Shown: positions 29,849 to 54,300, counted from the first letter of the stretch. The stretch is 64,000 bases of DNA from Phycisphaerae bacterium (GCA_028289375.1 JANQQK010000039.1:80842-144841), one strand, 5' to 3'. Notes: generated by a model from the letters alone, not told the origin. Made by a program: numbers and translations.

Positions 29849-31561
29849 ATGATCAACGGTGAGATTGCGGCGGCGTTCAATCGCATCGCCGATCTGATGG
29901 AAATCAGTGGTGAGAGCGGGTTTCGCGTCAATTCCTATCGCCGGGCAGCGCGGACGATCAAGGCCTACCCGGAGGATCTGTCCGTCGTGGCGGGCGAGGG
30001 TCGGCTGACGGATCTGGACGGGGTGGGCAAGTCGTCGGCGGAGAAGATCAACGAGTACATCCAGAGCGGCACGATTGGCGCGTTGGCAGACCTTGAGCCC
30101 GGGTCGCTGCCCGACCTGCTGCGGATTCAGGGGTTGGGGCCTAAGAAGATCGCGGTTTTGCATGATGAGTTGAGTGTCGCCAGCATCGAGGACCTGAAGT
30201 CGGCCATCGACGAGGGATCGGTTGCGTCACTGGCTGGCTTCGGGGCGCAAAGCGTCAAGAAGATCGCCGAGGGGATCGCATTCCTGGAAAAATCGGGCGG
30301 GCGGACAGCGATGGGAATCGCGTGGCCTGTGGCGGAATCAATGGCGGAGATGCTCCGTGGCTTGCCAAACGTGACGCAGGTGGAGATTGCGGGATCGCTG
30401 CGGCGTGGTGCGGAGACGATTGGCGATGTCGATCTGCTGTGCGTCTGCGACGAATCGGAGCCAGTGATGTCGGCCTTTACCGGTCAGGGCGATGTGAAGC
30501 GCGTCCTGGCGCAGGGGAGCACGAAAAGCTCGGTGACCGTCGAGATCGACAACGGGCGTGAGTTGCAGGTCGACCTGCGGGTCGTACCGGCGGAGTCGTT
30601 CGGGGCGGCTTTGCAATACTTCACGGGTTCGAAGGAGCACAACGTCCGCGTCCGCGAATTGGCAGTCAGGCGGAAGCTGAAGCTCAACGAGTATGGCTTG
30701 TTTGACGGCGACAAGCAGGTTGCGGGCGAGACGGAGGCGGGCATCTACGAAGCACTGGACCTGCCCTGCTACGCGCCGGAGATGCGCGAGGATCGGGGGG
30801 AGTTGGACCTTGACGCGTCGCCCCCACTGATCGAACTCGCCGACATCCGTGGCGATCTGCACATGCACACGACAGCCAGCGACGGCAAGTGCTCGATCGA
30901 GGAGATGGCCGAGGCGGCAAAGGAGCGTGGATACAACTACATCGTCATCACCGACCACTCGAAGAGCTCCGCCGTCGCCAACGGCCTGTCGATCGAGCGG
31001 ATGAAGCGGCATATCTCAGACATTCGGGCGGCGGATGATCGCACTAAGGGCATTCGCATTCTCGTCGGGTGCGAGTGCGACATTCTCATGGACGGGTCGC
31101 TCGACTATCCGGACGACATACTGGCTGACTGCGACATCGTGGTGGCCAGCATCCACAGCGGCATGACCGGGGCAAAGGCGAAGCCGACGGACCGTCTGCT
31201 GAAAGCGATCGACAACCGCTACGTGTCCATCGTCGGACACACCACCGGGCGATTGATCAACCGGCGACCGGCCATGGAGATCGACATGGCCAAGGTAATC
31301 CAAGCCGCTGCCGACAGTCACACGGCCATGGAGATCAATGCCTCGTGGCAGCGATTGGACCTTAAGGATCTGCATGCCCGCCAGGCGATTGACGCCGGCG
31401 TGATGCTGGCGATCGACACCGACGCGCACCACACGTCGCAACTGGATCAGATGATGTTCGGCATCCGGACGGCACGGCGTGCGTGGGCGACCAAGGAACA
31501 CGTGTTGAACACACGCACGACTGCCAGCCTGCTCAAGTGGATCGCGAAGAAACGCGGATAA
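29849..31561 (+). CDS. polX: family X DNA polymerase with C-terminal PHP domain (PolX)
   Basis: HhH motifs (LDGVGKSSAEKI, IQGLGPKKI). Pol-beta nucleotidyltransferase core EIAGSLRRGAETIGDVDLL. PHP motif GDLHMHTTASDG...ITDHS. Confidence 0.9.
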   Translation: MINGEIAAAFNRIADLMEISGESGFRVNSYRRAARTIKAYPEDLSVVAGEGRLTDLDGVGKSSAEKINEYIQSGTIGALADLEPGSLPDLLRIQGLGPKKIAVLHDELSVASIEDLKSAIDEGSVASLAGFGAQSVKKIAEGIAFLEKSGGRTAMGIAWPVAESMAEMLRGLPNVTQVEIAGSLRRGAETIGDVDLLCVCDESEPVMSAFTGQGDVKRVLAQGSTKSSVTVEIDNGRELQVDLRVVPAESFGAALQYFTGSKEHNVRVRELAVRRKLKLNEYGLFDGDKQVAGETEAGIYEALDLPCYAPEMREDRGELDLDASPPLIELADIRGDLHMHTTASDGKCSIEEMAEAAKERGYNYIVITDHSKSSAVANGLSIERMKRHISDIRAADDRTKGIRILVGCECDILMDGSLDYPDDILADCDIVVASIHSGMTGAKAKPTDRLLKAIDNRYVSIVGHTTGRLINRRPAMEIDMAKVIQAAADSHTAMEINASWQRLDLKDLHARQAIDAGVMLAIDTDAHHTSQLDQMMFGIRTARRAWATKEHVLNTRTTASLLKWIAKKRG

Positions 31562-31682: not shown

Positions 31683-33158
31683 TTATCCCAGAAGGGCCAG
31701 CAGCTGGCCGGCCTGCTGATTGGCCACACCCAACAGTGAGAGACCGGAGTTCACGAGCACGGTCTCACGGTTGAGGTCTGCGGTCGCCTCGGCGAAGTCG
31801 GTGTCGGCGATGACGCTTCGGACGGTGGTCAAACCAGTCTTTGTGGACTGCAGCGAGTTGATCGACGACTGAACCTGGAACTTCTGGAACGCGCCGAGTC
31901 GACCTCGCTCGGTCGCCACGTCGGTGATGGCATTCTTGATCGTTTTCAACGCCGTCGCGACATCGGAATTCAAATCGGCTGTTCCGCCACCCTTGAGATC
32001 GCTCAGGAATGCCCCGGCATCACCGCCGCCGAGGTTGTAGCTGAACAGACTGTTGAGACCGATTGTCTGACGCGTGGCGTCGGACGTTCCAAGCTGGAAG
32101 GTCGCACCGGTCGTCACGTCGACGTTGAACGTCTCGGTGTTCGATCGATTGGCGACACGTCCAAATCCGTAGTCCTCTGGAAGCGAGAACTCAAGGCTCA
32201 AGCCATTCGATGTAAAGCTGACATCGAGACCATCGACGATGGCTTCCTGTCCATTGACCGTTACCGATGCGTCGGTGCCGTTGGTCAGGTTTGTGCTGAA
32301 GATGGTCGACGTCGTGCCAGCGATGTTGTTGCGGATTGTCCCCCCGGAAAGCACCTCGATCGACACGAACTCGTCGCTTCCAAAACCTGTCGTGTCGAAA
32401 TCGATATTGTTGGTCGTGCCATTGGTCGTCGCGCTGATGCCCGTCTGTTCGGTGGCAGCGTTGACGGCTGAGATGATCTCATCGCGTGTCAGACCACTGC
32501 CCAGCGTGATCGTCGCCGTCCCCAAGGTTCCGGTGATGGCGATCTGCGTGGTGCCGCTGGTGTTGAAGTTGGTTCCGGCGGCGTTGAATGAGGTTGCAGC
32601 AAAAGCGGCAGATGCTGTTTGCGCCGACGCGGTGATCGTCGAGACGACCTGTATGTTTGAGCTGGCTTCGGAGCGCGAGAAGATTCGAAGGTTGCTGACC
32701 TTCGTGGAATCGACACCGGTGCTCGCGATGCCCAACGAACCGTCGAGCAGACGCTTCCCGTTGAACTCCGTCGTCCGAATGATTCGGTCGATCGAGTCGA
32801 TGGCAGAGTCGATCTGTGCCTGGTTCGCGGCGATCTCCGAATTGGACAAACCGCCTTCATTGGTCGACGCAGCCACGAGCGTCTCGATCTCCGTCAGCAG
32901 GTTGCTGACCTCGACGAGTGCGGACTCGGCCACGGCCAACTGCGCATCTGTTCTTTGGTTGTTGTCGATTGAAGCGTTCACGGCGGTCAGATCGGCATTG
33001 ATCGATTCAAGCGCGATCAGACCAGCGGGGTTGTCCGACCCCTTGTTGATCGTCTTACCAGTGGTGAGCTGCGTGAGCAGATTGGACTGGCGAGACGTCG
33101 TCTGGTTGAGCAGATTCAACAACGTGAGGGTATTCGTGTTTGTAACTGTCAGCCCCAT
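31683..33158 (-). CDS. fliC: flagellin
   Basis: Conserved N-terminus (LLNQTTSRQSNLLTQLTTGKTINKGSDNPAGLIALESINADL) and C-terminus (ATADLNRETVLVNSGLSLLGVANQQAGQLLALLG). T/S/N/G-rich variable middle region. Confidence 0.9.
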   Translation of the reverse strand: MGLTVTNTNTLTLLNLLNQTTSRQSNLLTQLTTGKTINKGSDNPAGLIALESINADLTAVNASIDNNQRTDAQLAVAESALVEVSNLLTEIETLVAASTNEGGLSNSEIAANQAQIDSAIDSIDRIIRTTEFNGKRLLDGSLGIASTGVDSTKVSNLRIFSRSEASSNIQVVSTITASAQTASAAFAATSFNAAGTNFNTSGTTQIAITGTLGTATITLGSGLTRDEIISAVNAATEQTGISATTNGTTNNIDFDTTGFGSDEFVSIEVLSGGTIRNNIAGTTSTIFSTNLTNGTDASVTVNGQEAIVDGLDVSFTSNGLSLEFSLPEDYGFGRVANRSNTETFNVDVTTGATFQLGTSDATRQTIGLNSLFSYNLGGGDAGAFLSDLKGGGTADLNSDVATALKTIKNAITDVATERGRLGAFQKFQVQSSINSLQSTKTGLTTVRSVIADTDFAEATADLNRETVLVNSGLSLLGVANQQAGQLLALLG

Positions 33159-34914: not shown

Positions 34915-36135
34915 ATGTCCGATCGCTCCGTTTCGTTCATCCTGGCCACGCACAACCGTTGCGACATCACGCTTAACACGCTGAATCACGTCCACGCGTG
35001 CGGGCTGCCTGTCGGCGATTTTGAAGTGTTTGTGGTGGACAATGCCTCGACGGACGGCACCGTCGACGCCATTCGCGGGACATTTCCCGACGTCCACGTG
35101 CTGCCACGCGGCGGCAACCATGGCAGTTGCGCCAAGGCATTCGCGATTGGCCGAGCACGTGGGCGATACGTTGTCTTCCTCGACGACGACTCCTACCCGC
35201 AACCCGGCAGCATCGAGCGGATGATCGATCATTTCGTGTCCGACGACACGCTTGGCTGTGCAGGCTTCACGGTGCATCTGCCCGACGGACGTCGCGAATG
35301 CAGTGCCCTGCCCAATGTGTTCATTGGTTGCGGCGCCGGGTTTCGACGCGACGCCCTGCTGAGTGTCGGCGGACTCGACGAGTCACTGTTCATGCAGGCC
35401 GAGGAATACGACCTCAGCTTTCGCCTGATCAACGCAGGCTATCATGTGCAGACATTTGATGACCTGCACGTCGAACACCTGAAGACCCCGCAGGCCCGGC
35501 AAAGTGCGCGGACGACCTATCACGATACCCGGAACAACCTGCTGCTGACCCACCGCTACCTCAGCGACAGCCAGCGATCCATCTACCTCCGCGACTGGAC
35601 GCAGCGATACCGTTGGCTGGCGGCGATCAACGATCATCGGCCAAGCTTCGTCGAGGGACGTCGAGCCGGCAACACGCGCGGTCGCCGCGAACGCATCGCC
35701 GGTCGCCACAAACAGCTATCGGACCAGGCCTTTGAGACACTCTTTCGGACACGCGAGATCCACGATCGGATGTCCGTACTGGCCGACGAAGGCGTCGAAC
35801 GCATCCTCCTCGCCGACCTCGGCAAGAACGTCCACCCCTTCGTCAACGCGGCGCGGGAATGTGGCCTGTCGATACTGGGAATCGCCGACGACCGCTTTGC
35901 CAGTGTTGGCAACGCCTATCGCGGCGCGCCATTGATCGGCATGAAAGACGCAGCCAAGTGCAAGCCCGACGCCGTGATCGTCAGCAACACGTCCCCCGTC
36001 CACGCCGCCGTCACGCGCGATCGCTGGTCGCCGTTCGCCCCGCCCGTCCATGCGTGGTTCGCTGAATCAGCCGATTCTCGCCGACACCAGATCGCTTCCA
36101 CTTGCCCCCCGATTCCTGCCGATACGTCAGCGTAA
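34915..36135 (+). CDS. family 2 glycosyltransferase with extra C-terminal Rossmann-like domain
   Basis: VSFILATHNR...FVVDNASTDGT...VVFLDDDS GT2 motifs. The last ~140 aa are alpha/beta-like (ERILLADLGKNVHPFV...DAVIVSNTSP) with no family assigned. Confidence 0.75.
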   Translation: MSDRSVSFILATHNRCDITLNTLNHVHACGLPVGDFEVFVVDNASTDGTVDAIRGTFPDVHVLPRGGNHGSCAKAFAIGRARGRYVVFLDDDSYPQPGSIERMIDHFVSDDTLGCAGFTVHLPDGRRECSALPNVFIGCGAGFRRDALLSVGGLDESLFMQAEEYDLSFRLINAGYHVQTFDDLHVEHLKTPQARQSARTTYHDTRNNLLLTHRYLSDSQRSIYLRDWTQRYRWLAAINDHRPSFVEGRRAGNTRGRRERIAGRHKQLSDQAFETLFRTREIHDRMSVLADEGVERILLADLGKNVHPFVNAARECGLSILGIADDRFASVGNAYRGAPLIGMKDAAKCKPDAVIVSNTSPVHAAVTRDRWSPFAPPVHAWFAESADSRRHQIASTCPPIPADTSA

Positions 36136-36198: not shown

Positions 36199-37245
36199 GT
36201 GGGCAAGACCGCACTCATCACCGGCATCACCGGGCAGGATGGCTCCTACCTCACCGAATTGCTGCTCGAAAAGGGATACGAGGTACACGGCGTCATTCGC
36301 CGCTCGAGCACGTTCTCCACAGAACGCATCGAACACCTCTACCGCGATATTCACGACCCAGGATCGCGACTGCACTTACATTATGGCGACATGCTCGACG
36401 CACTCGGTATGCGCCGTCTGATCAGCGACACGCAGCCTCACGAGATCTACAACCTCGCCGCTCAATCGCACGTCCGCACGAGCTTCGATCAGCCGGTCTA
36501 CACGACCGAGTCGATTTCCATCGGCACGCTCAACCTGCTCGAAGCCATTCGCGACTATCAGGACGCCACCGGTCGCGAAGTGCGATTCTATCAGGCCAGC
36601 AGCAGCGAGATGTTCGGCAACATCCGCGAAGTCCCGCAATCCGAATCAACCCGATTCTACCCGCGCAGCCCCTATGCATGCGCCAAGGTGCATGCGTACT
36701 GGACGACCGTCAACTACCGCGAAGCCTACAACACGTTCGCGTGCAACGGCATCCTGTTCAATCACGAATCGCCACGCCGCGGCGAAACCTTTGTCACACG
36801 CAAGATCACCCGCGCCGCCACGCGCATCAAACTCGGTCGCCAAGCCAAACTCTACCTCGGTAATCTCGACGCCAAGCGCGACTGGGGATTCGCCGGCGAC
36901 TACGTTGAAGCCATGTGGCTGATGCTGCAGCAGCATGACCCGGACGATTTCGTCGTCGCCACCGGCGAGTCATTCAGCGTACGGGATTTTCTCAACGAAG
37001 CGTTCGGCTACCTGGAGATCGACTGGCAGGACCACGTCGTGATCGATCCGAAGTATTTCCGACCGACCGAAGTCAACGAGCTTCGCGGTGACGCAAGCAA
37101 GGCACGCAATCTTCTTGGCTGGAAACCGCGCGTCAGTTTCCAGCAACTCGTACGCATGATGATCGATGCGGACATGCGGCTTGCCCAACGCGAGGACGCG
37201 CTCGTCTGTGCCGGTTTTGAGGAAACGCACGCCGAATGGGAGTGA
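36199..37245 (+). CDS. gmd: GDP-mannose 4,6-dehydratase
   Basis: [43 protein letters not shown] (YxxxK). [22 protein letters not shown]. Confidence 0.92.
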
Positions 37246-37264
37246 CACAGGCGTCTGACGTACC

Positions 37265-38239
37265 ATGGCAGCGGAAACAACAACATTCTGGCAAGGCAAA
37301 CGCGTCTGCGTCACCGGCGGCAGTGGATTCCTCGGTCGCGTCGTCTGCAGCAAGCTCACCGAAGCTGGCTGCCGATCGGTCATGGTCCCGCGTCAGCACG
37401 ACTACGACCTTACCGATGAACGCGCCGTCGCACGCATGTACGTCGACTTCGCACCGGACCTGGTCATTCACCTGGCTGCTGTTGTCGGGGGCATCAACGC
37501 GAATCGGCAAAGCCCGGGAAGATTTTTCCACGCCAATCTCGCCATGGGCATGCACCTGATCGAACACGGGCGTCTTAACGGTGTCGAGAAGTTCGTGCAG
37601 ATCGGAACCGTCTGCTCCTACCCGAAGCACTGCCCGACGCCATTTCATGAGAACGCGCTCTGGCAAGGCTACCCCGAAGAAACCAATGCCCCCTACGGGA
37701 TTGCGAAGAAAGCACTGCTCACCATGCTGCAGGCCTATCGCGAGCAGTATGGGCTACGCGGCATCTTCGTCATGCCCGTGAATCTCTACGGCCCACATGA
37801 CAACATGGACCCCGATGCGTCACACGTGATTCCGGCGTTGATCCGCAAGTTTCACCATGCGGTCTCGGCTGGCGAACGTGTCGTGCAATGTTGGGGAACC
37901 GGCAAGCCAAGTCGCGAGTTCCTGTACGTCGATGATGCCGCCAACGCCATCCTGTTGGCCGCCGAACACTACGACGAACCGGAACCGATCAACATCGGCA
38001 CAGGGCGCGAAGTCTCCATCGCCGCCCTGGCGGAAATGATCGCACATCTGACCGGGTACACCGGTGACATCGTCTGGGACGTCGCCATGCCCGACGGGCA
38101 ACCGCGTCGCTGCCTCGACGTGAACCGGGCGGCGGAACAACTCGGCTGGAATGCGCGGGTCGATCTTCAGGAAGGCCTGCAACGAACGATCGAATGGTGG
38201 GCCCGCACCAACGCCACCGCACCCGTCGCCATTGCGTAG
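37265..38239 (+). CDS. fcl: GDP-L-fucose synthase
   Basis: VCVTGGSGFLG. YGIAKK (YxxxK). NLYGPHDNMDPDASHVIPALIRKF. Lies directly downstream of gmd. Confidence 0.9.
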   Translation: MAAETTTFWQGKRVCVTGGSGFLGRVVCSKLTEAGCRSVMVPRQHDYDLTDERAVARMYVDFAPDLVIHLAAVVGGINANRQSPGRFFHANLAMGMHLIEHGRLNGVEKFVQIGTVCSYPKHCPTPFHENALWQGYPEETNAPYGIAKKALLTMLQAYREQYGLRGIFVMPVNLYGPHDNMDPDASHVIPALIRKFHHAVSAGERVVQCWGTGKPSREFLYVDDAANAILLAAEHYDEPEPINIGTGREVSIAALAEMIAHLTGYTGDIVWDVAMPDGQPRRCLDVNRAAEQLGWNARVDLQEGLQRTIEWWARTNATAPVAIA

Positions 38240-38337: not shown

Positions 38338-41169
38338 TCAGCTCTTCTCGACCGCAGCCTCTTTCTTCACCGGCATCGCCATGATGCTGAACTGCCGTGT
38401 CGGCACGTAGTACTTACGGAACGCATCACGAACCTGCTCGGCGGTAAACGCGTCGAACGAGTCAAGCTCGGTCTTCTCCACGTCGAGCGACTCGCCGCGA
38501 TGGTCCATGTGCCTTAGCACGCTCCACCAGTAGGATGGCTCCAGCATGGCCGTGCTGAGATTCTCCTTGACCTGCTTCTTGGCGTTCTCCAACTCCTCCG
38601 CCGTCGGGCCACTCTTGGCAAACGCCGCGAAGGCAGCGTGCACTTCCTCAGCCACGCGATCGGCATTCTCCGGATCACAAGTCGACTGAGCCATGAACTG
38701 ACCTGAATCCCTGTAGATGCTCGAAGGCTGACTCCCCGCACGAATCGAGTAAACGATCGAAAGCTCTTCGCGGATGCGCTTGACCAACTTGCTTGACAGG
38801 ATGTTCGACGCCAATTGCAACGCGCGACGGTCATTCGTGTGCTTGGAATCGCAAATGATAAACCCGGCCATCGACATCGCCTGCGGGGTCATGGTATCAA
38901 CGTCGACCTTGCGGACGAGTGGTCCGGTCTCGCGTGAGAACCGCCGCAAGCTGTCGATGTTCTCTGCACGCCGCGGCCGATCCGGCAGCGAACCGATGTA
39001 CTTGGTGATCAACGGCATCACCGCGTCGTATTCCATATCACCGACCACCGCGACCTCAATCGGCGCACTGCAGATCTTTCGGAACCACGCCTGCGCAGTT
39101 TCGACATTCTGCCCGTTCACCTGATCCTTCGTCTGGAACGCAAGCCGCGGGTCACCACCGGAAACCACATCCAGCAGCTGCTCGACGGCCTTGAATCGCG
39201 GCATATGCTCACGCATTTCGATGCCCTGCATCTGCTGCAGCTTCCAGTTGTCAAAGGCCGACTGCTCGATCTTGCCGTCGGTGACCAGCGCGTGCACCAG
39301 TTGCAGGCCGGTTTCCAGATCCGCCGGGGAACCGCTCAATGAAAGTGTGAAGGCATCACCACTGCCGCCGCGTCCACTTCCGACATTGATGTTCTTGCCC
39401 GTCATCAGATCGCGAATGTTCGTCGACGACAAACGTGACGTCGCCGGGACATTCACAGCCAAACTCGCCACTTCCGTCACGCCCTGCGTTTCCGAAGTCT
39501 CTTCAATGCGACCACCCGCCATCGCGACGCTGACGAACACCGAGTCTTTCTTGTAATCCATGTAGCGATGGTGCACGCGGACGCCGTTCGACAGCCACGC
39601 GCTCGTGATCTTCAGATCTTCATCCATCGATTTCTCGACGACCTTGCCAGATTCGGGCATCTTCGCGAGCAGCGAGGTCGGTGCATCGGCCTCTTCGATC
39701 GGCTTGACCTTGCGTGCCCACGCAGAACGGGCTGCGGCAAGAACATCCTTGCGATCCGGAACGTCGACGTCCGGCTTATCCGGCATTGTCAAGATGTAGG
39801 CGAATGTCCCAGGCTCGAAGTGCTTTTTGAACGCAGCATTGACCTCTGCCACCGTGATGGAATCCAGCAGACCACGATAAAGATCAAGTTCCTGCTGTGC
39901 AGACAGCACAGGCTCGCGATCATTCACGCTCGACACGATCTCACGGATGATGCCGCGGGCATTCCGTGTCGGTTCCGTCTTCACGCCACGCTCAGCCGAT
40001 GCGATGATTTCCTTCTTGGCGAGGTCGAACTCTCGCTGCGTGAATCCATGCTCCCGGGCACGACTCACCTCGAGAATCAGCTCTTCCAGCATCGACATCC
40101 AGTCTTCGGTCTCGCCCGTGGCGCTGCCGCTTGTCAGCATCGCGTCGTTGAAGAAGTTTCCGACGCTCACGCCGGCTCCACGGAACGATGCCTCGCCCTT
40201 CTTGACCATGTCGTCGTAGCGACGTCCGGCGATCCACGTGCCGACGAATTCAACCATTTCCTGACGCGCGTCTTCCACCGCCACGGTCGGCGGGCGACCC
40301 GGTCGAATGTTCATGATCTGCACATTGCAGATTTCCATTTCCGGATCGGTTATGACCATCGCACGCTGCTTGGTGAACGGCTTGAACTCAGGCCCCTTCG
40401 GCTCACGTGCCTTCTTGGCGGCCTTTTCCTTACCGAACCACTTTTCAATCAATGGTGTCACGCGCTCTGCCGGTGTATCACCAACAACGACGACCGTGAT
40501 GTTCTCCGGACGGTACCACGTCTGGTAGTAGTCCATGAACTCCGAACGCGGAGCATTCTTGATCACTTCCTCCGTTCCAATCGGAAGACGCTGGGCAAAG
40601 CGCGCGCCGGCAAACAACTCAGGCCACAATTTCTCGCGAATGCGCTCCTGCGCGCTCCGACGTGACCGAAGCTCCTCGAGCACAATCCCGCGCTCCTTTT
40701 CAATCTCCTCTGCCGGCATCGTCACGCGGAAGGCATAGTCACTCAGCACCATCAGGGCTTTGTCAATTTGGCTCTTTTGTGTGTCCGGCGTGAACAACAT
40801 GTAGGCGGTCTGATCGAAGCTGGTAAACGCGTTCAGATCCGCCCCAAACTCCATGCCGATGCTCTCGAAGTAGGGAATGAGCGTTCCCGGCGGGAAGTTC
40901 TCTGTGCCATTAAAGCACATGTGCTCGAGGAAGTGCGCCAACCCCTGCTGGGCATCGGTCTCGTTCAAAGAACCGGTACGCACGTGCATCATCAACGCCA
41001 ACTTGCCAGGCGGATTGTCATGTTGGCGATACATCCACGTGACGCCGTTTTCCAACTTGCCTGTCTTGATTCGCGAGTCACTCGGCAGCGGCACCTTGGC
41101 CAACGTTTCAACCGCACCGCACATCATCAGTGCCAGCGTCAGGCACGACATCCAACATCTCTTGCTCAT
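38338..41169 (-). CDS. M16-family (insulinase/pitrilysin-like) zinc peptidase, two fused M16 units, secreted
   Basis: HxxEH zinc motif HFLEHMCFNGT. Signal peptide MSKRCWMSCLTLALMMCGAVETLA. About 940 aa, consistent with a tandem active/inactive M16 arrangement. ATG at 41169 preferred; GTG at 41181 is possible. Confidence 0.85.
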   Translation of the reverse strand: MSKRCWMSCLTLALMMCGAVETLAKVPLPSDSRIKTGKLENGVTWMYRQHDNPPGKLALMMHVRTGSLNETDAQQGLAHFLEHMCFNGTENFPPGTLIPYFESIGMEFGADLNAFTSFDQTAYMLFTPDTQKSQIDKALMVLSDYAFRVTMPAEEIEKERGIVLEELRSRRSAQERIREKLWPELFAGARFAQRLPIGTEEVIKNAPRSEFMDYYQTWYRPENITVVVVGDTPAERVTPLIEKWFGKEKAAKKAREPKGPEFKPFTKQRAMVITDPEMEICNVQIMNIRPGRPPTVAVEDARQEMVEFVGTWIAGRRYDDMVKKGEASFRGAGVSVGNFFNDAMLTSGSATGETEDWMSMLEELILEVSRAREHGFTQREFDLAKKEIIASAERGVKTEPTRNARGIIREIVSSVNDREPVLSAQQELDLYRGLLDSITVAEVNAAFKKHFEPGTFAYILTMPDKPDVDVPDRKDVLAAARSAWARKVKPIEEADAPTSLLAKMPESGKVVEKSMDEDLKITSAWLSNGVRVHHRYMDYKKDSVFVSVAMAGGRIEETSETQGVTEVASLAVNVPATSRLSSTNIRDLMTGKNINVGSGRGGSGDAFTLSLSGSPADLETGLQLVHALVTDGKIEQSAFDNWKLQQMQGIEMREHMPRFKAVEQLLDVVSGGDPRLAFQTKDQVNGQNVETAQAWFRKICSAPIEVAVVGDMEYDAVMPLITKYIGSLPDRPRRAENIDSLRRFSRETGPLVRKVDVDTMTPQAMSMAGFIICDSKHTNDRRALQLASNILSSKLVKRIREELSIVYSIRAGSQPSSIYRDSGQFMAQSTCDPENADRVAEEVHAAFAAFAKSGPTAEELENAKKQVKENLSTAMLEPSYWWSVLRHMDHRGESLDVEKTELDSFDAFTAEQVRDAFRKYYVPTRQFSIMAMPVKKEAAVEKS

Positions 41170-41311
41170 GGTTCCAAACACTCCGAAGGTAGGATCGGGA
41201 ATTTCAGGGCGAAGGATGCCCCGTGACCGTTTTGACTACAATCGTCAAGCGTAGCCCGTGGCCTGCGACGAATCAAAGGGGTGGCTGTATGGACTTGTAA
41301 GCAGCGACACG

Positions 41312-42592
41312 TCATTCTGCCCGTTTCGGCACCGTGACGCTGTCCGAACGCAACGTTGTCATCAGCATGCGTCGCGGGAGCGGTTTGCGGAGCGCCACCG
41401 GGGCCTGCGGATTGCCAAGCCACTGCACGCCCGCCATCCGCTGCCAGGTTCTGTTCGCCAAATTCGAATACGACGCGGTCAAGAGGCCCCCGGCGGGGAT
41501 CAACGTATCGGCGAGACGGGCGATCGTCAGCGATTCGCCCGGTTGGACCGTCTTCAGCTTGGCGAGGGAAAATCTTCCGGCATCGGCCACCGGCGGATTG
41601 GGCAGACTCAGCTCAACCGCATCGACGCCATCACCCACGAACCAATGCATGCCCGCGAAGGGTGCTTCCGCCATTCCCGCCACGATGTTCGTGTTGACCA
41701 CAATCGGCACGTCGTTGAGATTCGTGATCACCGCCTCGGTCGAATCGCCACGCCGCTTCAGCGACAGAGACGCCTCCCGCCACGAACGACGTACCACCTC
41801 AGGCGCCGAGGACGTGACCGATACCGCAAGCTCGTTGCTCTGCGCCCGCCCCACACCCGCGTCGATCAAATCCTGATCCGACCACTGTGGCTGATAGACC
41901 AGCCGAATTCGGTACGTGCCCTTTTGCAACATGCGATAACGCGCGCGATTGCGATTGAACGCCTCGACGTCGTATGTCACGCGCGCCCGCGGCGGAACAC
42001 GTGAATATACCTCGCCATCGACCCGTTGCTGAACAGCGGTGAGAAGGTCGACATCCTCGTTGATATCATCCGTGTGCAGATCGATGCGCGAACCGTCCGG
42101 ACCCGTCACCTGCAGAAAGTCGGCCAAGTCCAGCAAACCCGTCACCGCATCGATGCCGGCGCGATCCGATGCATCACGCAGCACCACCGGCACGCGCGAC
42201 GAAACATCGAGCTTGTTGTCCAGATGCATGTGCAGATCGAACGGCTCATCCCATGCCACCTTCGACTTCGACGCTTCGAGGCGAATGTCCAATCCACCAA
42301 AGTATGATTGATCGATGACGCGGATCAGCGCTTTCGCGCGGACGGCCGTCTCGTAGTCATCACCGCGACTGGCCATTTCAAGAACAGAAGTGGCGGACTT
42401 GCCGATCTTCAGAAGGGCAAGAGTTGCCGAGGAACGATCCTCGAACGATGCGGAACCCAGCTTCTCAACAAGCGCAATCAGCTGCTTGCGTTGATCGTCA
42501 GCCGCGTCTGATGTGGCGACATCCTGCGACCATGCCGTCATTGGCTGACAACCAATGACCACAACCATCAGCCACAACAATCTGACGATCAT
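41312..42592 (-). CDS. hypothetical lipoprotein (HEAT-like N-terminal segment plus beta-rich body)
   Basis: Lipobox LMVVVIGCQ. Last gene of the radical-SAM string, 9-nt gap to the gene upstream. No family recognised. Confidence 0.5.
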   Translation of the reverse strand: MIVRLLWLMVVVIGCQPMTAWSQDVATSDAADDQRKQLIALVEKLGSASFEDRSSATLALLKIGKSATSVLEMASRGDDYETAVRAKALIRVIDQSYFGGLDIRLEASKSKVAWDEPFDLHMHLDNKLDVSSRVPVVLRDASDRAGIDAVTGLLDLADFLQVTGPDGSRIDLHTDDINEDVDLLTAVQQRVDGEVYSRVPPRARVTYDVEAFNRNRARYRMLQKGTYRIRLVYQPQWSDQDLIDAGVGRAQSNELAVSVTSSAPEVVRRSWREASLSLKRRGDSTEAVITNLNDVPIVVNTNIVAGMAEAPFAGMHWFVGDGVDAVELSLPNPPVADAGRFSLAKLKTVQPGESLTIARLADTLIPAGGLLTASYSNLANRTWQRMAGVQWLGNPQAPVALRKPLPRRMLMTTLRSDSVTVPKRAE

Positions 42593-42601
42593 CCCAAGTC
42601 G

Positions 42602-43513
42602 CTATTCAACGCCGACAAACGACGCGATCCCGAGCGCGTTCGTCACCGCCGGCGTTTCGGTGGCAGAATTCACGAGGAAAGACCGAACATCCGCAACCAG
42701 TTCGTCGTCGGTCGACGGGCCTGCGAGGAATGGTCCAAGATCAATCGACGACGTACGCCCCAGCACGCGGAATTGATCCTTGCTCAGTTTCATTGGAATC
42801 AAGGTACCACCGCTCTCAGCGAAGCCATTGTAATCCGACTCGAGAATCACACCCGCCGGCGTCAGACCATGCACGATCTCCTTGGCCGACTCCATCGCAT
42901 TCAGGTGGTATTGCAGCGTCGCAACCGGAATCAACTCGCGCTGGATGTCATCAATCGAAACGCCCGCCTCATCCAACGCCGCCGCAGCGCCAAAATGCAG
43001 CACCGGATCGCCGCGAGGCCCGAACGAGAACCGATGGCCGGACACTTGTTCGATGCGTTCGATGTCGCTCTTCGCACTGGCCACGATCAATCCGACGTTG
43101 TCATTGGCTTGAGCACGCGCAATGACCCGACACCCCTCGACCTCACCGGTGACCTCGTCGTACTGATCGTCATCCAGCAGCGCGAAGTCCAGCCGACCGC
43201 TCTCAAGCTGCAACCCAACCTGAAACGGCTTTAGTTGTTCGACCTGAATCGGGCGATTCAGATGACGCCCCAACGCGCGGCGGAACTCGGTCCACGGCGT
43301 CCGCTCATCCAGATCCCACCATGCCCGAACATTCCAAAGCCGACTCGCGTCCCCCGTCACACCAATGCGAACCGGCTCCTTTTGCGGGGCAAACGAAGAC
43401 TCAAGCCCGAACGGGTTCCAGAACGTCTGCGAGAATTCATTCGCACGGCAGCCCAATGACGACATCACCAGGATGCACGACAGGCCGACTCCGACGCTAC
43501 GTTGTTGATTCAT
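42602..43513 (-). CDS. PhnD-like (phosphonate/phosphite-type) periplasmic substrate-binding lipoprotein
   Basis: ATG at 43513 gives the lipobox ILVMSSLGC. Pattern resembles the PhnD family (LESGRLDFALLDDDQY; GLIVASAKSDIERIEQVSGHRFSFG; HFGAAAALDEAGVSIDD). Similarity was judged by eye only. Confidence 0.5.
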   Translation of the reverse strand: MNQQRSVGVGLSCILVMSSLGCRANEFSQTFWNPFGLESSFAPQKEPVRIGVTGDASRLWNVRAWWDLDERTPWTEFRRALGRHLNRPIQVEQLKPFQVGLQLESGRLDFALLDDDQYDEVTGEVEGCRVIARAQANDNVGLIVASAKSDIERIEQVSGHRFSFGPRGDPVLHFGAAAALDEAGVSIDDIQRELIPVATLQYHLNAMESAKEIVHGLTPAGVILESDYNGFAESGGTLIPMKLSKDQFRVLGRTSSIDLGPFLAGPSTDDELVADVRSFLVNSATETPAVTNALGIASFVGVE

Positions 43514-43584
43514 GTCCGTTGTCCTTCCACTCAACGCCATTCGCCGAAGTATAGACTCGCCGCGCAACTGCCTCAACGAATTGA

Positions 43585-45420
43585 TCAGGCACTCAGCACC
43601 GGCAGCTCAAGACTTCCCGACGGATCAATCTGTCGGAACACATCTTCATACTGCTTGCGCAAGTAAGGAGTTGGCGGTCCGCCATTCAGGTGCGACCACG
43701 GCAGCACCTCGTCAGCCGCTCGCTCACGATGGGCGTAGAAGTTTATGTCCACGCCCTCCTGCTCGAACGCGCGCTGCCAAATCTCCGGCTTGAAATGCTC
43801 GTCCCAGCCATCCAGCCGCGCGCCCATCCGCCAAGCCGTTTCGATCACGCCGGACAATCGACGATCGCCCCGAGCGAACACCGCCTCCAGTTCCGACCTC
43901 TCGATGTTGTGCATGCGGATCTTCACGGCGCTGCGCCGTGACTTCGCCAGGTCACGCAATCGCATCCGAACATCCCAGAAATACTCAGGCTCCGGTTGAG
44001 CAGCCCATTGGAACGGCGTGTATGGTTTGGGCACCAGCCACCCGACCGAAGACGTCACCGACGCCGGCGAGCCCGAGATCGGACGCCGAGCCTCACTGAC
44101 CTCCCGGCTCAGATCAAAAATCCCCTCGATGTCGTCAGGCCGCTCGCCGGGGAACCCCGTCATGAAGTAAAGCTTTACACTCTTCCAGCCCGCCTCATAC
44201 GCCGCCCGAACGCCATCAAGCAGATGCCCATCGGTGACTTTCTTGCGAATCGCCCGACGCATGTCGTCGTTGGCCGCCTCCACCGCAATCGTCAACCCAC
44301 CCTTGCGAACGCCCGACACCATGCTCGGAATGTGTGCCAGCATCTTGTCGACCCGCAGCGACGGAACCGAGATGTTCACACCACGGGGATGAAATCGCTC
44401 AGACACACGCTGGGCCAGCTCGCGAAGCTGCGGATAGTCAGCCGTCGAGAGCGACAGCAACCCGAGCTCATTGATCCCCGTCGTCCGCCACATCGACTCG
44501 GCGATTTCCAGAATCTGATCCACGCTCCGCAAACCCAAGGGACGCTTTGTGTAACCGGCATGGCAGAATCGGCAGCGCTGTGGACAACCGCGCATGATTT
44601 CCACAGCGATGCGGTCGTGGATGACATCCGGAAACGGCACCAGCGGTCTCAAGGGAAATGGTGCGTTCTCAAAATCCATCGTCTTGCAGCGATGGATCAG
44701 CGGCGAAGCCGTGCTCGATTTCGGGGCGATCTCCCGAACGGTTCCGTCAACGTGGTAGTGGACATCGTAGAGTCCAGGTGCATAGATCCAGTCGTAACGC
44801 TTGGCGAACTCCTCGATCATGTCGCGACGACGCATGCCCGACGCCTTTAACTCCTTGTAAGTGCGGAGGATAGACGCCATCGAATCCTCGCCGTCGCCGA
44901 GAACCACGAGGTCCACGAAGTCGGCCACCGGTTCGGGATTGTCCGCCTGCGGCCCACCCACGATGACCAGCGGATGCGTGTCGTCGCGATGCTCGCGGCG
45001 GAACGGGATGCCCGCGAGATCCATCATCGTCAGCACACTCGTGAAGACCATCTCGTACTGCAGGGAAATCGCGAGGATGTCGCAATCCGCCACCGGCTGT
45101 CGCGTGTCCCATGTGAAAAGCGGGATGTTCCGGTCCCTCATGCGCTGCTCGGCGTCAAGTTCCGGGCAATACGTTCGTTCTGCACAGACACCCGGCGTGT
45201 GGTTGCACAGCCAATAGAGAATCTGACAACCGAGGTGGCTCATCCCAAGGGCGTACGTGTCGGGAAAGGCAATCACGACGCGTGCGTCGGCCTTTCCCCA
45301 GTCCCCCTCCTTTGCCAGACCGTTAATCTCCTTGCCGATGTACTGGCTTGGTTTGCGAACGAACGGCAGGAGTTCATGACTGACCCTGTCTGCGAGTGGC
45401 ATGATGTTGGGCGCGATCAC
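43585..45420 (-). CDS. B12-binding-domain radical SAM protein (TIGR03960-like, function unknown)
   Basis: CxxxCxxC motif RGCPQRCRFCHAGY (nt 44551-44595). N-terminal B12-binding-like region VVIAFPDTYALGMSHLGCQILY. About 610 aa. Confidence 0.85.
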   Translation of the reverse strand: MIAPNIMPLADRVSHELLPFVRKPSQYIGKEINGLAKEGDWGKADARVVIAFPDTYALGMSHLGCQILYWLCNHTPGVCAERTYCPELDAEQRMRDRNIPLFTWDTRQPVADCDILAISLQYEMVFTSVLTMMDLAGIPFRREHRDDTHPLVIVGGPQADNPEPVADFVDLVVLGDGEDSMASILRTYKELKASGMRRRDMIEEFAKRYDWIYAPGLYDVHYHVDGTVREIAPKSSTASPLIHRCKTMDFENAPFPLRPLVPFPDVIHDRIAVEIMRGCPQRCRFCHAGYTKRPLGLRSVDQILEIAESMWRTTGINELGLLSLSTADYPQLRELAQRVSERFHPRGVNISVPSLRVDKMLAHIPSMVSGVRKGGLTIAVEAANDDMRRAIRKKVTDGHLLDGVRAAYEAGWKSVKLYFMTGFPGERPDDIEGIFDLSREVSEARRPISGSPASVTSSVGWLVPKPYTPFQWAAQPEPEYFWDVRMRLRDLAKSRRSAVKIRMHNIERSELEAVFARGDRRLSGVIETAWRMGARLDGWDEHFKPEIWQRAFEQEGVDINFYAHRERAADEVLPWSHLNGGPPTPYLRKQYEDVFRQIDPSGSLELPVLSA

Positions 45421-45610
45421 GGTGACTTACCGCCTTCTTGCTTCGGGAATCTCTTTGAACCGGCCATGTGTGCTGGCGTGGCCGCATTATACCCGGCCAC
45501 GATGTCGTTGACAGTTCCCAAATCGTGCACTGGGATTCCCGGTCAACCGCAAACCTCGCAAGGGTTGCCACCGCGATCGTGAAAGTCGCACTTCACGCAG
45601 CATATGAGAA

Positions 45611-45639
45611 TTGCATGCGATTTGGCGGCTCGGTACAAT
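45611..45639 (+). promoter_or_regulatory. candidate sigma70-type promoter
   Basis: TTGCAT (45611-45616), 17-nt spacer, TACAAT (45634-45639). Lies 22 nt upstream of the ATG at 45661. Confidence 0.35.
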
Positions 45640-45660
45640 TCCGCCTTGAGGCGTGTGGTC

Positions 45661-46554
45661 ATGCAGCGATTCCTCCCGGCAACATCTCGGCGGCGTCGAT
45701 TCGAAGTGCAGCACCCCTGTGCGCTCCGAGGCTTCAGCTTGGCTGAGTTGCTCGTTGTGGTGGCGGTGATCGGCATGCTGATCACGATCCTGCTTCCGTC
45801 TCTCCGACGGTCGATGCAGCACGCGTCGACGACCATCTGCATGCACCAGCTTCATGAACTCGATCAGGCGATGACGGCTTATCGCTTTGACAACGTCGGA
45901 TCGGTGCCGTGTACGGACGCGGCCCGCTCAACGCCCGACGCTCATCCGGAAGATGATTCCTGGTTTGGAAAGCTCTTTCCCAGGTACATGCAGGAGTTGT
46001 CGGTACTGCGTTGCCCATCCGATCCGTATCCTTGGTCGCAGTCAGCGCTGGAAAGCCCACTCGCGGAACAGACCGATCCGTCGAATGCGTCCAGTTACGG
46101 CATGAACGAGTTGCTGCGGATGGCGGGCATGTGCAATGTCGAGCGTTTCGCCCCGCGACATCCGTCCGAGACGATTCTGCTGGCCGACATGGGACCGGAT
46201 CAGGTTCTCGGTGATGTCGGTGGACGTTTTCAGCCGGTGCCTGCGCGCGAAGGCGGTCGGTTGCGCTGGGACGACAATTACCATCCGGGGACGTCCGGGC
46301 TTCAGCAATCGTGGCTGACGCAGCGGCATCTGGGTTCGATCAACGTGCTGACTGTCGGAAGCGTGGTCAAGACAGTGCCGACGCGTGACATCATGCGGGA
46401 GCGCATCCGGAGCTACTACGGTAACTGCGCGGCAGGTGGCTGCCCATTGTGCACGGACCTTTCGCTTGCGCACTACTCGTTCGCCAACGACCGCATTTTC
46501 TGGTGGACCGGCTCATTCCCGAATGCGGGCGACATGCACGCATCGCATCCATGA
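45661..46554 (+). CDS. pilin-like protein with prepilin N-terminal methylation motif (DUF1559-like)
   Basis: ATG at 45661. RGFSLAELLVVVAVIGMLITILLPSLRRS. C-terminal INVLTVGSVVKTV resembles the DUF1559 NVLFxDGSV motif. Confidence 0.7.
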   Translation: MQRFLPATSRRRRFEVQHPCALRGFSLAELLVVVAVIGMLITILLPSLRRSMQHASTTICMHQLHELDQAMTAYRFDNVGSVPCTDAARSTPDAHPEDDSWFGKLFPRYMQELSVLRCPSDPYPWSQSALESPLAEQTDPSNASSYGMNELLRMAGMCNVERFAPRHPSETILLADMGPDQVLGDVGGRFQPVPAREGGRLRWDDNYHPGTSGLQQSWLTQRHLGSINVLTVGSVVKTVPTRDIMRERIRSYYGNCAAGGCPLCTDLSLAHYSFANDRIFWWTGSFPNAGDMHASHP

Positions 46555-47024
46555 TGTCCTCGCCCACGACATCTGATCCCTTTGACAACGAGTCGTTCGA
46601 ACGCGGAATCACGCCCACGCAGTGGTACAGCCTCATTGCGGCCTTGGCGGTATCGGTTGCGCTGGTCCTGATATGGTGGGCGTCGCAGGCCGCCCCACCG
46701 ACGGTGGCTGTGCAGCGTCAGATCCACGACCTCGAATCACGGTGGCGATGTACCAACGGGCATGTCTTTCAAGCTGCGGGATCGGTACTCCCGCGCAAGT
46801 GCAAGACCTGCACGGCGACGGCGGATCTCGAAGTCTCCTACACGTGCACGGTCCATGGGGTTCGGGACGTGCTGGTTCGCCTCGAACAGGAGGATTTTCG
46901 GGAGCGGATCACGCACGTGAGCGTGCATCCCGGCATCTGGCAACAGATGACCAAATCGGTGCACTGCCCGAAATGCGGGCGTGCGATGACACCTTCGTCA
47001 CTCAATCCATTTGAGGATCGTTGA
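46551..47024 (+). CDS. hypothetical single-pass membrane protein with two zinc-ribbon-like knuckle pairs
   Basis: The ATG at 46551 overlaps the pseudopilin stop (ATGA). TM helix WYSLIAALAVSVALVLIWWA. Cys/His pairs RCTNGH...KCKTC and TCTVHG...HCPKCG. Confidence 0.5.
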   Translation: MMSSPTTSDPFDNESFERGITPTQWYSLIAALAVSVALVLIWWASQAAPPTVAVQRQIHDLESRWRCTNGHVFQAAGSVLPRKCKTCTATADLEVSYTCTVHGVRDVLVRLEQEDFRERITHVSVHPGIWQQMTKSVHCPKCGRAMTPSSLNPFEDR

Positions 47025-47051: not shown

Positions 47052-48125
47052 TTATTCCAGTTCTTTTGGCATCCGGAAATCGGCTACGAAGACGTGACTT
47101 TTGCCTTCCGGTCCACGTTGAGATGTCCACATCATTTTGCGTCCATCGTTGCTGAAGACGGGCAGTCCATCGAACCGCGCGGAGTTGGTCGCCCGCATGA
47201 GTTTGCCCGTCTCAATGTTCATGAGATAGACCTCGTAGTTGTGGTGTCCCTGCAGCGATGTGGTAAACGCGATGACCTTGCCATTGGGATGCCAATAGGG
47301 AGCCCAGTTGACCGCATCATTGCTGGTGAGTTGCTTCTCGCCGGTGCCGTCGATGTTGACGACGTAGATCTGCAGATAGTCCTTCTTCTGCCGATCGGCG
47401 CGGAAGATGATGCGCTTTCCTTCAGGCGAAATGAAGGGGCCGCCGTTGTAGCAGTCCTTTGTCTTGGTCACCTGGCGAACATCACTACCGTCGGCCTTCA
47501 TGGTGTAGAGGTTCATGTGTCCGTCGCGATTGCTGGCGAAGGCGATCATCGAGCCGTCGCGGGAGAACGCCCCCTCTGCGTCGTAGCCCAGCGTGCTCGT
47601 AAGCGGCGTTAATCCGCTTCCGTCGACGTTGGCACGGTAAATATCCATGTAGGGGTTGAAGTCCCATGAGTAGGTACCACCCTCGCGCTTGTAGCCGGGA
47701 ATGGGAACTTCAAAGCTCGGGTCCTCGATGCGTGGATCGGTGTGGCTTGACGCGAAAATGATGCTCTTGTTGCTCGGGTGATAATAAGCACACGTGCACG
47801 CGCCTTTCCCGGTGCTGACCATCTTTGGCGTGCCGCCTGACGTCGGGATGGTGTAAATCTGGTAGTGCTCGTCGCCGGTGGGAACAGCCTGAAAAATGAC
47901 CGCTTTGGCGTCGGGCGAGAAGTAGGCTTCCCCCGCCTTGACAAGGCCCATCTCCGAGTTGGTCAGTTGGCGGATGTTTGTGAGGATCGGTGCCTCCGCT
48001 TCGTTTGCGCGAACGTCGACCGTCGCTGACACGGCGACGAGTGCGAGCGCGACGACGAGGGGGGCTTGACTCTTTCTGGTGGCAGTCACGATTGGGTGCT
48101 CCGTTTGGTGTTTCGTGTGTTGCAT
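47052..48125 (-). CDS. TolB-like PD40/WD40-like beta-propeller protein, secreted
   Basis: Signal peptide APLVVALALVAVSATVDVRA. Repeated PD40 units FSPDAKAVIFQA, FSRDGSMIAFASNRDG, ISPEGKRIIFRADR, WHPNGKVIAFTT, FSNDGRKMMWTSQR. Confidence 0.75.
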   Translation of the reverse strand: MQHTKHQTEHPIVTATRKSQAPLVVALALVAVSATVDVRANEAEAPILTNIRQLTNSEMGLVKAGEAYFSPDAKAVIFQAVPTGDEHYQIYTIPTSGGTPKMVSTGKGACTCAYYHPSNKSIIFASSHTDPRIEDPSFEVPIPGYKREGGTYSWDFNPYMDIYRANVDGSGLTPLTSTLGYDAEGAFSRDGSMIAFASNRDGHMNLYTMKADGSDVRQVTKTKDCYNGGPFISPEGKRIIFRADRQKKDYLQIYVVNIDGTGEKQLTSNDAVNWAPYWHPNGKVIAFTTSLQGHHNYEVYLMNIETGKLMRATNSARFDGLPVFSNDGRKMMWTSQRGPEGKSHVFVADFRMPKELE

Positions 48126-48266
48126 GCAGTCCGATAACGTATCTCGACGCGACGCGCGGGGCAACCGGCACACGGCTTCGAGCGGGTGGTTCCGATAATC
48201 AGTACGGTTCGCCCCATCGGCGGGTGCTTTTCCACTTCCGATATTCCCTGTCTGGTGCGTTCAGCG

Positions 48267-53416: not shown

Positions 53417-53535
53417 GGAATGAATCCTTGATCTTGGGGTCGATGTTTTCCGGTTGTCAGCCGATTACTTTTATACGCGAACGACGGGAAAAGCACTAGA
53501 ATCACCCGCCCGTGGGCAACCGGAACCGAGCCGAC

Positions 53536-54300
53536 ATGGCCATGATCGAAGTTGACAATCTGACGAAGGAATTTCACGACAGTGATGGCCGCGCGTTTCG
53601 CGCGGTGGACGGGTTGTCGTTTCAGGTCGAGGCGGGGCAGATTTATGGTCTGCTCGGTCCGAACGGTGCGGGCAAGACGACGTCACTGCGGATGCTCAGC
53701 GCGTTGATGACACCATCATCGGGACGCATCACGGTGAATGGCTACACCGTTGGCGAGCACGTCTTCGAAATCAAACAGTCGATCGGATTTCTGACGGCCA
53801 ACACGGGACTGTATCAGCGGTTGTCGCCGCGCGACGTGCTGCGCTATTTCGGCGAATTGCATGGATTCGACAAACAGCAGGCACGCGACCGTTGCGAGGT
53901 GTTGATCCGCGAGATGGATATCACTGATTTCTCAGATCAACGGTGCGGCACGCTCTCGACAGGACAAAAGCAACGCACAAACATCGCAAGGGCGCTGATC
54001 GCCGATCCGCCGGTCCTGATCATGGATGAGCCGACGCTTGGTCTTGATGTGATGAGCAACCGCGTGATTCTCGATTTCATCATCGCCCAACGCGAAGCGG
54101 GCAAAGCGATCATCCTCTCCACGCACTACCTCGACGAGGCGGAAACGATGTGCGACATGATCGGCCTATTGCATCGCGGACGGATCGTGGCTGAAGGAAC
54201 GATCGATGAGCTTCGTGAGCGTGCAGATGCGGTGCGGTTGTCGAGCATCTTCCTGAAACTGATTCACGCCCATGATCCGCTGGAGGGCGTGCTTCCATGA
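53536..54300 (+). CDS. ABC transporter ATP-binding protein (ABC-2/NatA-like)
   Basis: Walker A GLLGPNGAGKTT. Signature LSTGQKQR. Walker B VLIMDEPTLGLD. Its stop overlaps the next start (ATGA). Confidence 0.9.
   Translation: MAMIEVDNLTKEFHDSDGRAFRAVDGLSFQVEAGQIYGLLGPNGAGKTTSLRMLSALMTPSSGRITVNGYTVGEHVFEIKQSIGFLTANTGLYQRLSPRDVLRYFGELHGFDKQQARDRCEVLIREMDITDFSDQRCGTLSTGQKQRTNIARALIADPPVLIMDEPTLGLDVMSNRVILDFIIAQREAGKAIILSTHYLDEAETMCDMIGLLHRGRIVAEGTIDELRERADAVRLSSIFLKLIHAHDPLEGVLP

Follow-up and report, generated by a model that had tools for sequence, protein, structure and literature searches.

Does the radical S-adenosylmethionine (SAM) enzyme of the TIGR03960 family encoded in a Phycisphaerae genome work together with the two exported proteins whose genes follow it, or do the three genes only happen to be neighbours? 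The question arises from a run of three minus-strand genes at positions 41312-45420 of a 64,000-nucleotide stretch of DNA from a Phycisphaerae bacterium (GCA_028289375.1 JANQQK010000039.1:80842-144841), which we call the window. The radical SAM gene (43585-45420, minus strand) encodes a cytoplasmic protein of 611 residues with the CxxxCxxC motif CPQRCRFC, the second gene (42602-43513 from an ATG start or 42602-43576 from a TTG start, minus strand) a PhnD-like lipoprotein, and the third (41312-42592, minus strand) an exported protein of 426 residues from an undescribed family, which we named lipoX. A reading made beforehand from the sequence alone (hereafter the sequence-only reading) had considered the three genes to be a coupled system, with a PhnD-like binder that lacks a transporter and an unknown lipoprotein. 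We found that the conserved unit is the pair formed by the PhnD-like and lipoX genes and not the three-gene string. The locus most probably consists of two adjacent but unrelated units, a housekeeping TIGR03960 gene and an independent PhnD-like/lipoX envelope module, whose adjacency would reflect inherited gene order.

The strand, coordinates and gaps given for the three genes in the sequence-only reading all agreed with the list of open reading frames (ORFs) and with the sequence. The gap between the radical SAM and PhnD-like genes is 8 nucleotides with the TTG start at 43576 and 71 nucleotides with the ATG start at 43513; in the latter case, the spacer (43514-43584) runs from the radical SAM stop to the PhnD-like ATG and contains a GGAAGG ribosome-binding site. 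We preferred the ATG because the public gene call on the identical contig starts there and because an invariant lipobox cysteine then falls at residue 22. The ORF of the second protein was thus correctly recognized, and its product has 303 residues from the ATG instead of the 304 initially counted. The PhnD-like and lipoX genes are separated by 9 nucleotides, and the G+C content is uniform over the region.

Conservation of the string was assessed from a scan for the radical SAM enzyme, limited to one genome per species, that yielded 42 loci from Phycisphaerae/Planctomycetota (hereafter the Phycisphaerae loci) and 38 from Clostridia. Loci are labelled L001 and so on, the window locus being WIN. 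Our informative set, in which the window proteins were compared by tblastn, consisted of the 33 Phycisphaerae loci (of 42) whose sequence continues for 2 kb or more downstream of the radical SAM gene. The PhnD-like and lipoX genes directly follow the radical SAM gene in only one of them (L001, the closest relative, with 82% identity between the radical SAM proteins), lipoX alone follows it in three (L004, L010, and L019), and neither gene is found downstream in the other 29. Both were also absent from all 38 Clostridia loci in the tblastn comparison. A general system coupling the radical SAM enzyme to two exported proteins is therefore not what we observed, since any linkage is kept in 4 of 33 Phycisphaerae loci and in 0 of 38 Clostridia loci. 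The region is otherwise generally syntenic, and the genes downstream of the radical SAM gene are its variable part.

The PhnD-like and lipoX genes tend to stay together when the order with the radical SAM gene breaks, which fits selection for linkage within the pair and not for linkage to the radical SAM gene. The assembly GCA_013140575 illustrates this: in its radical SAM locus (L003), both genes are missing from the 10 kb downstream, and the pair lies on a different contig (L083), in the order PemK, PhnD-like and a lipoX homologue of 443 residues. In L081, the order is PhoU_div, PHO4, PhnD-like, a lipoX homologue of 418 residues and a sigma-54 activator, and in L126 it is PhnD-like, a lipoX homologue of 446 residues and a sigma-54 activator. 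The proteins encoded downstream of the PhnD-like gene in these three loci and in L125 are all lipoX homologues, with 36-61% identity. When metagenomes were scanned with the PhnD-like protein as the sole query, no relative was confirmed; the lipoX alignment as query gave 35 loci, in five of which a PhnD-like gene precedes lipoX (L089, L090, L093, L096, and L103), the contig starting inside the PhnD-like gene in L089 and L090. In L093, about 180 bp of sequence are present upstream of the pair and contain no radical SAM gene. The lipoX gene was thus found downstream of a PhnD-like gene in 11 loci (WIN, L001, L125, L081, L083, L126, L089, L090, L093, L096, and L103). The PhnD-like tree contained two subgroups that pair with lipoX, and these flank one without lipoX. 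In a distant PhnD-like subgroup (about 40% identity), the gene is flanked by those of adenine deaminase and saccharopine dehydrogenase and lipoX is absent, and L127 has a PhnD-like member without lipoX in a different context again.

The radical SAM gene, for its part, has surroundings of its own. Its assignment to TIGR03960 proved correct over the full length: the hidden Markov model (HMM) scored 617.3 bits against a curated cutoff of 462.3, residues 16-593 corresponding to model positions 2-578 of 605, and the radical SAM core is present together with the CPQRCRFC motif. The Pfam matches were PF19864 (174.7 bits) and PF04055 (77.9 bits). The enzyme had been described as a B12-domain radical SAM protein; the second half of this description stands, but the B12-binding domain PF02310 scored 18 bits (E 0.0026), under its cutoff of 32.1, and the corresponding region is covered by PF19864 instead. 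The window protein shares 59-82% identity with its 42 Phycisphaerae homologues and about 40% with those of Clostridia. Six Clostridia loci were inspected. An ORF of ~235 residues directly follows the radical SAM gene in all six, and in five of them an ORF of the size of RNase E/G comes next, followed by rplU-, rpmA- and obg-like (L21/L27/Obg-like) ORFs. In one of these loci (L044), HMM searches identified the ~235-residue ORF as TIGR03936 (214 bits) and the next one as an Rne/Rng ribonuclease (492 bits). We read these surroundings as a core housekeeping context, and the TIGR03960 gene is probably a widely distributed housekeeping gene of undescribed chemistry. Full-text literature searches found no functional study of TIGR03960, TIGR03936, DUF2344, PF19864 or PF10105.

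The window enzyme resembles the TIGR03960 member of the TIGR03960/TIGR03936 pair of Bacillota, whose function is undescribed, in its full-length TIGR03960 match, its PF19864 N-terminal domain, its CxxxCxxC motif and its identity of about 40% to the Clostridia proteins. It differs in lacking the partner: the ORFs following the radical SAM gene in four Clostridia loci, of which that of L044 is the HMM-confirmed TIGR03936, gave no tblastn match to either the window or loci L001-L042, and the 10 kb around the radical SAM gene contained no TIGR03936 in any of the 42 Phycisphaerae loci; the partner gene may lie elsewhere in the genome. The rne/rng and ribosomal-protein genes of the Bacillota context are likewise absent from the Phycisphaerae loci. 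What anchors the radical SAM gene in Phycisphaerae is a block located upstream. In the window, this block comprises a prepilin-like (N-methyl/GspG-like) gene divergent from the radical SAM gene (45604-46554, plus strand; TIGR02532, PF07963 and a partial GspG match), a small ORF (46449-47024, plus strand; ~160-190 residues in the block) and a PD40/TolB-like propeller gene (47052-48173, minus strand; TolB-propeller matches). A divergent prepilin-like homologue lies directly upstream of the radical SAM gene in 32 of the 41 Phycisphaerae loci with upstream sequence, usually accompanied by the small ORF and the PD40 propeller, so that the block is far better kept than the genes downstream. The divergent intergenic region between the radical SAM and prepilin-like genes showed little conservation in an alignment of four loci.

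We then considered the second unit. The resemblance of the PhnD-like protein to phosphonate/phosphite-type binding proteins was confirmed by a PF12974 match (73.4 bits, cutoff 27) and by an AlphaFold2 model (predicted local distance difference test, pLDDT, 86.6) with the two-lobed fold of a binding protein. The top Foldseek matches of this model, with E-values from 1e-16 to 1e-11, were PtxB (2.4e-16), ArrX, PhnD, AioX, HtxB, and BstB (2.9e-11), those to PtxB, PhnD, AioX and ArrX lying between 1e-16 and 1e-13; the failure to match substrate-binding protein folds that the sequence-only reading had named as a point against itself did not come true. The protein is also an exported lipoprotein, as had been proposed: its signal peptide ends in MSSLG-C22, and in an alignment of 36 homologous sequences Cys22 never varies and Gly21 is kept in at least 90%. 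The family comprises 41 clusters, and all those with an organism name come from metagenome-assembled genomes of Planctomycetota or Phycisphaerae.

A phmmer search of the PDB with the single PhnD-like protein gave nothing useful, and the family profile was needed to reach PtxB (2.6e-7) and AioX (2.6e-6). The residues common to AioX and PhnD for oxyanion binding are Ser161, Ser163, His192, Tyr88, and Tyr131 (PMC5908839). In the profile alignments, both the S-T-S of PtxB and S161-N162-S163 of AioX align to D169-P-V of the window protein and Tyr88 of AioX aligns to Phe97, and the second Tyr and the His of the oxyanion site appear to have no matching residue. D169 is invariant in the 36-sequence alignment, and the pattern FxFG..D.V matched 33 of 39 sequences. 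Judged from these alignments, the PhnD-like protein is a divergent PF12974 subfamily member without the oxyanion clamp. As the Ser-x-Ser clamp is replaced by Asp-Pro-Val, its ligand is probably not a phosphonate, a phosphite or an arsenic oxyanion.

The alternative that survives best is that the PhnD-like protein is an ordinary substrate-binding protein for transport, with its ATP-binding cassette (ABC) permease and ATPase encoded elsewhere and lipoX as an unrelated neighbour. Gene order is often scattered in Planctomycetota, and the PF12974 match and the fold are those of a substrate-binding protein; homologues are named 'phosphate/phosphonate ABC transporter substrate-binding protein' in the sources, and in L081 the PhnD-like gene follows PhoU_div and a PHO4 phosphate transporter. 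We nevertheless consider this explanation unlikely. The claim that no transporter accompanies the binder was upheld by a Pfam scan of 42 other ORFs of the window, which found no ABC permease or ATPase genes of an importer and a single ABC ATPase. The latter belongs with a 715-residue fusion of an ABC-2 membrane domain and a Rce1/CAAX-type protease domain (53512-56441 for the two genes, plus strand), the only ABC system of the window, located 10 kb away; it follows that no importer goes with the PhnD-like protein there. The claim also held outside the window, since no ABC importer adjoins any of the nine PhnD-like family members whose context was read. The Ser-x-Ser, Tyr and His oxyanion residues, as aligned above, do not seem to be kept. 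Moreover, the 11 loci in which lipoX follows the PhnD-like gene cover at least four flanking contexts and two of the three PhnD-like subgroups, which makes it unlikely that lipoX is an unrelated neighbour. In comparison with PhnD, PtxB, and HtxB, the binding proteins of the ABC transporters for phosphonate, phosphite and hypophosphite, the window protein shares PF12974, the two-lobed fold and export, but differs in having no adjacent PhnC/PhnE-type ABC system, in the apparent changes of S-T-S to D-P-V and of the conserved Tyr to Phe97, in its lipid anchor, and in its dedicated downstream partner lipoX.

Several observations weigh against the interpretation of the locus as two unrelated units. 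In a neighbour-joining tree of the radical SAM proteins (100 bootstraps), the order radical SAM, (PhnD-like), lipoX recurs in three well-supported separate clades, WIN/L001/L125, L096/L103 and L004/L010/L019, and the order is still kept where the PhnD-like and lipoX proteins are only 35-40% identical. The bootstrap values were 100 for WIN with L001 and also for these two with L002 and L003, 99 for L096 with L103 and 88 for L004 with L010 and L019. In L125, the radical SAM gene is followed after 70 nucleotides by the PhnD-like gene and, 14 nucleotides further, by a lipoX homologue of 425 residues. In L096 and L103, the radical SAM gene lies upstream of the pair at a distance of about 1 kb from the PhnD-like gene, and a conserved ORF of ~87 residues with the pattern MxGxVxWY...GRL... 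is located between the two (3211-3474 in L096 and within 1436-1882 in L103, both on the plus strand); this ORF had no Pfam match and no equivalent in the window. The co-transcription of all three genes in the WIN/L001/L125 clade is plausible from the sequence, given their common strand, the gap of 70-74 nucleotides, and the lack of a terminator and of a conserved internal promoter. In addition, since no TIGR03936 is found within 10 kb of the Phycisphaerae radical SAM genes, a lineage-specific partner of the enzyme is conceivable. Finally, the functional pairing of the PhnD-like protein with lipoX is itself something that we infer from synteny alone.

The transcription signals themselves were little informative. 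The 71-nucleotide spacer contains a weak promoter-like match (TTGAGG-17-TATACT, 9/12, at 43576-43548), which neither L001 nor L125 shares; in these two loci, only the region of the ribosome-binding site is kept. Two promoter-like sites were found versus 1.2 +/- 1.1 expected from shuffled sequence, which is not above chance, and a scan of the region detected no terminator-like site on the gene strand. The promoter and terminator scan is thus no evidence for or against co-transcription.

The order of the three genes is missing downstream of the radical SAM gene in the close relatives L002, L003, L030, and L036 and throughout a crown clade of 23 loci (bootstrap 99). Together with its recurrence in three clades, this suggests as the simplest history an old order running from the radical SAM gene to the PhnD-like and lipoX genes that was repeatedly broken. 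The sequence-only reading had stated that absence of the linkage in other genomes would speak against it; such absence was largely found, in 29 of 33 loci and with the pair also occurring away from the radical SAM gene, but not in the three clades in which the linkage recurs.

These same three clades, with the arrangement kept in WIN, L001 and L125, an additional small ORF in L096 and L103 and lipoX directly after the radical SAM gene in L004, L010 and L019, are an argument for a true three-gene operon or pathway. A small molecule or peptide made or modified by the TIGR03960 enzyme would then be exported and bound or sensed by the PhnD-like protein and lipoX. The placement of the genes on one strand with gaps of 71 and 9 nucleotides and no terminator, and the absence of TIGR03936 near the Phycisphaerae radical SAM genes, agree with such a pathway. 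We find it quite unlikely, however, because the linkage is missing in 29 of 33 informative Phycisphaerae loci and in all Clostridia loci, and because a close relative has the pair at a separate site in its genome (L083 versus L003), the lipoX and PhnD-like genes also occurring in several other contexts. The preservation of the upstream block in 32 of 41 loci indicates that regional synteny is high here without implying function, no exporter, precursor ORF, SPASM or RRE domain was seen, and the distance of about 1 kb in L096 and L103 argues in the same direction. A related possibility is that the radical SAM gene, the small ORF (where present), the PhnD-like gene and lipoX descend from the ancestral operon of this Phycisphaerae group, a molecule made or modified by the TIGR03960 enzyme, here without its usual TIGR03936 partner, being handled in the envelope by an oxyanion-blind PhnD-fold lipoprotein and the beta-rich lipoX. 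We regard this as improbable, as we do a true functional link between the radical SAM enzyme and the pair. If the ancestral-operon explanation were true, it would offer a first way into the function of the TIGR03960 family. If the two units are unrelated, as we favour, TIGR03960 stays an orphan and the locus offers no clue to its chemistry.

Even less probable, in our opinion, is that the PhnD-like protein and lipoX form an AioX-like envelope sensing module signalling to a sigma-54 enhancer-binding protein, with the regulator separated from the pair in the lineage of the window. In the AioX system, the signal passes via AioS and AioR to an RpoN promoter (PMC5908839). The nearest relatives of the PhnD-like protein with a solved structure include two sensors that act upstream of such a promoter, AioX and ArrX, and an orthologous stand-alone sigma-54 activator of 325-350 residues, 60-66% identical, directly follows lipoX in L081 (8561-9535), L126 (8531-9580) and L108 (904-1935). 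However, among about 40 loci with lipoX, this activator adjoins it in only 3, no histidine kinase adjoins the pair in any locus read, and tblastn with the activators of L081, L126 and L108 found no homologue in the window. The activators consist of AAA+ plus HTH_8 with no receiver domain, and in L126, where the sigma-54 AAA+ domain begins at residue 15 and HTH_8 comes next, a receiver or sensor domain could not be accommodated. How a periplasmic pair would reach a cytoplasmic activator of this kind, without a sensor domain, is not obvious. The window pair resembles the arsenic-oxyanion sensors AioX, ArxX, and ArrX (PMC5908839) in the transporter-independent use of a PF12974 fold, for which they are among the best PDB matches by both sequence and fold, and in the sigma-54 activator that adjoins the pair in three lineages other than that of the window. 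It differs from them in having no histidine kinase or response regulator alongside and in the apparent loss of the shared oxyanion Ser and Tyr residues, and the AioX systems have no lipoX-like partner (PMC5908839).

Two further candidates were rejected, phosphonate uptake because of the lost oxyanion residues and the absence of PhnCE genes, and a maturation cluster for ribosomally synthesized and post-translationally modified peptides (RiPPs) because of the absence of a SPASM or RRE domain, of a precursor ORF and of a conserved peptidase. At E <= 0.1, the radical SAM protein matched only PF19864, PF04055 and PF02310, without any SPASM or RRE domain. A small precursor-peptide ORF, for which the sequence-only reading had proposed a search, was not found nearby, the intergenic regions of 183 and 130 nucleotides containing only short, unconserved-looking ORFs and none that was convincing.

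The sequence-only reading had called the third protein an unknown lipoprotein. An unknown and exported family it is, as lipoX had no match in Pfam or NCBIfam, but the Cys of the lipobox of the window protein (VVIG-C15) is not conserved among homologues, and lipoX is therefore best termed an exported protein and not securely a lipoprotein. Its AlphaFold2 model (pLDDT 81.9, predicted template modelling score 0.73) begins with a HEAT-like module of three helices and continues into a region made mainly of beta strands. Foldseek returned generic matches of low TM-score (about 0.2), mostly to multi-domain proteins with an immunoglobulin-like beta-sandwich such as transglutaminases and complement C3/C5, and gave no functional lead. 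An exhaustive profile search yielded 150 representatives with an E-value of 1e-30 or lower. The majority are full-length, and the lowest-ranked are fragments or matches to the N-terminal repeat; many of the weaker profile matches may reflect the common helical N-terminus. Besides the loci in which it follows a PhnD-like gene, lipoX occurs in at least two other contexts. In more than 7 loci, including L091, L092, L094, L097, L101, L104 and L107, a divergent gene for a ~700-residue membrane protein with C-terminal TPR lies on one side and tatC comes after; in this TPR/TatC clade of lipoX, tatC is usually followed by a PyrD-like ORF (named from sequence only), and the context is equally conserved. 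In L112, L113, L120 and L121, lipoX adjoins a HemA-like ORF (also named from sequence only).

Taken together, the interpretation that we favour has the following form. The first unit would be the TIGR03960 radical SAM gene, a housekeeping gene tied in Phycisphaerae to the upstream prepilin-like/PD40 block. The second would be a Phycisphaerae-specific two-gene envelope module composed of a membrane-anchored lipoprotein of the PhnD/PtxB/AioX fold and the exported protein lipoX. The lipoprotein could bind a small ligand other than an oxyanion in the periplasm-like space and may act with lipoX as a carrier, a presenter or a sensor rather than feeding an ABC importer. The position of this module beside the radical SAM gene would then be the remnant of an old and decaying gene order retained in a few lineages, and not the sign of a shared pathway. 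A precedent for a PF12974 fold without an importer and with a hydrophobic, non-oxyanion ligand is BstB of Methylococcus (PDB 7T1M), a periplasmic PhnD-fold protein that binds sterols and works without an ABC importer (PMC10942540). The window protein resembles BstB in fold (Foldseek E 2.9e-11), but the hydrophobic ligand is that of BstB, and the bstB gene is found with those of BstA (RND) and BstC (TatT-like) and with sterol synthesis genes, none of which is present at the window locus.

Even if the radical SAM enzyme has no part in it, the locus retains some value, with a Phycisphaerae-wide, transporter-less and lipid-anchored PF12974 member and an undescribed exported family. The pair would join the few PF12974 proteins with a role outside ABC import, which include AioX and ArrX in sensing and BstB in sterol carriage, and screening for its ligand appears worthwhile in a phylum that has been little studied.

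The secreted M16 (pitrilysin-type) zinc peptidase that the sequence-only reading had placed 130 nucleotides downstream on the same strand is indeed encoded there (38338-41181, minus strand). It is two-lobed, matches PF00675 and PF05193 and has an HFLEH motif. A tblastn comparison with the radical SAM loci recovered its synteny in L001 only, and the peptidase is thus a neighbour outside the conserved unit. On the peptidase side of the locus, the flanking ORFs include a PolX-type polymerase with HHH_8, pol beta thumb and PHP domains (29849-31558), a flagellin gene (31686-33158), a glycosyltransferase-like ORF (34915-36135) and sugar-nucleotide ORFs resembling GDP-mannose dehydratase and GDP-fucose synthase (36199-38239).

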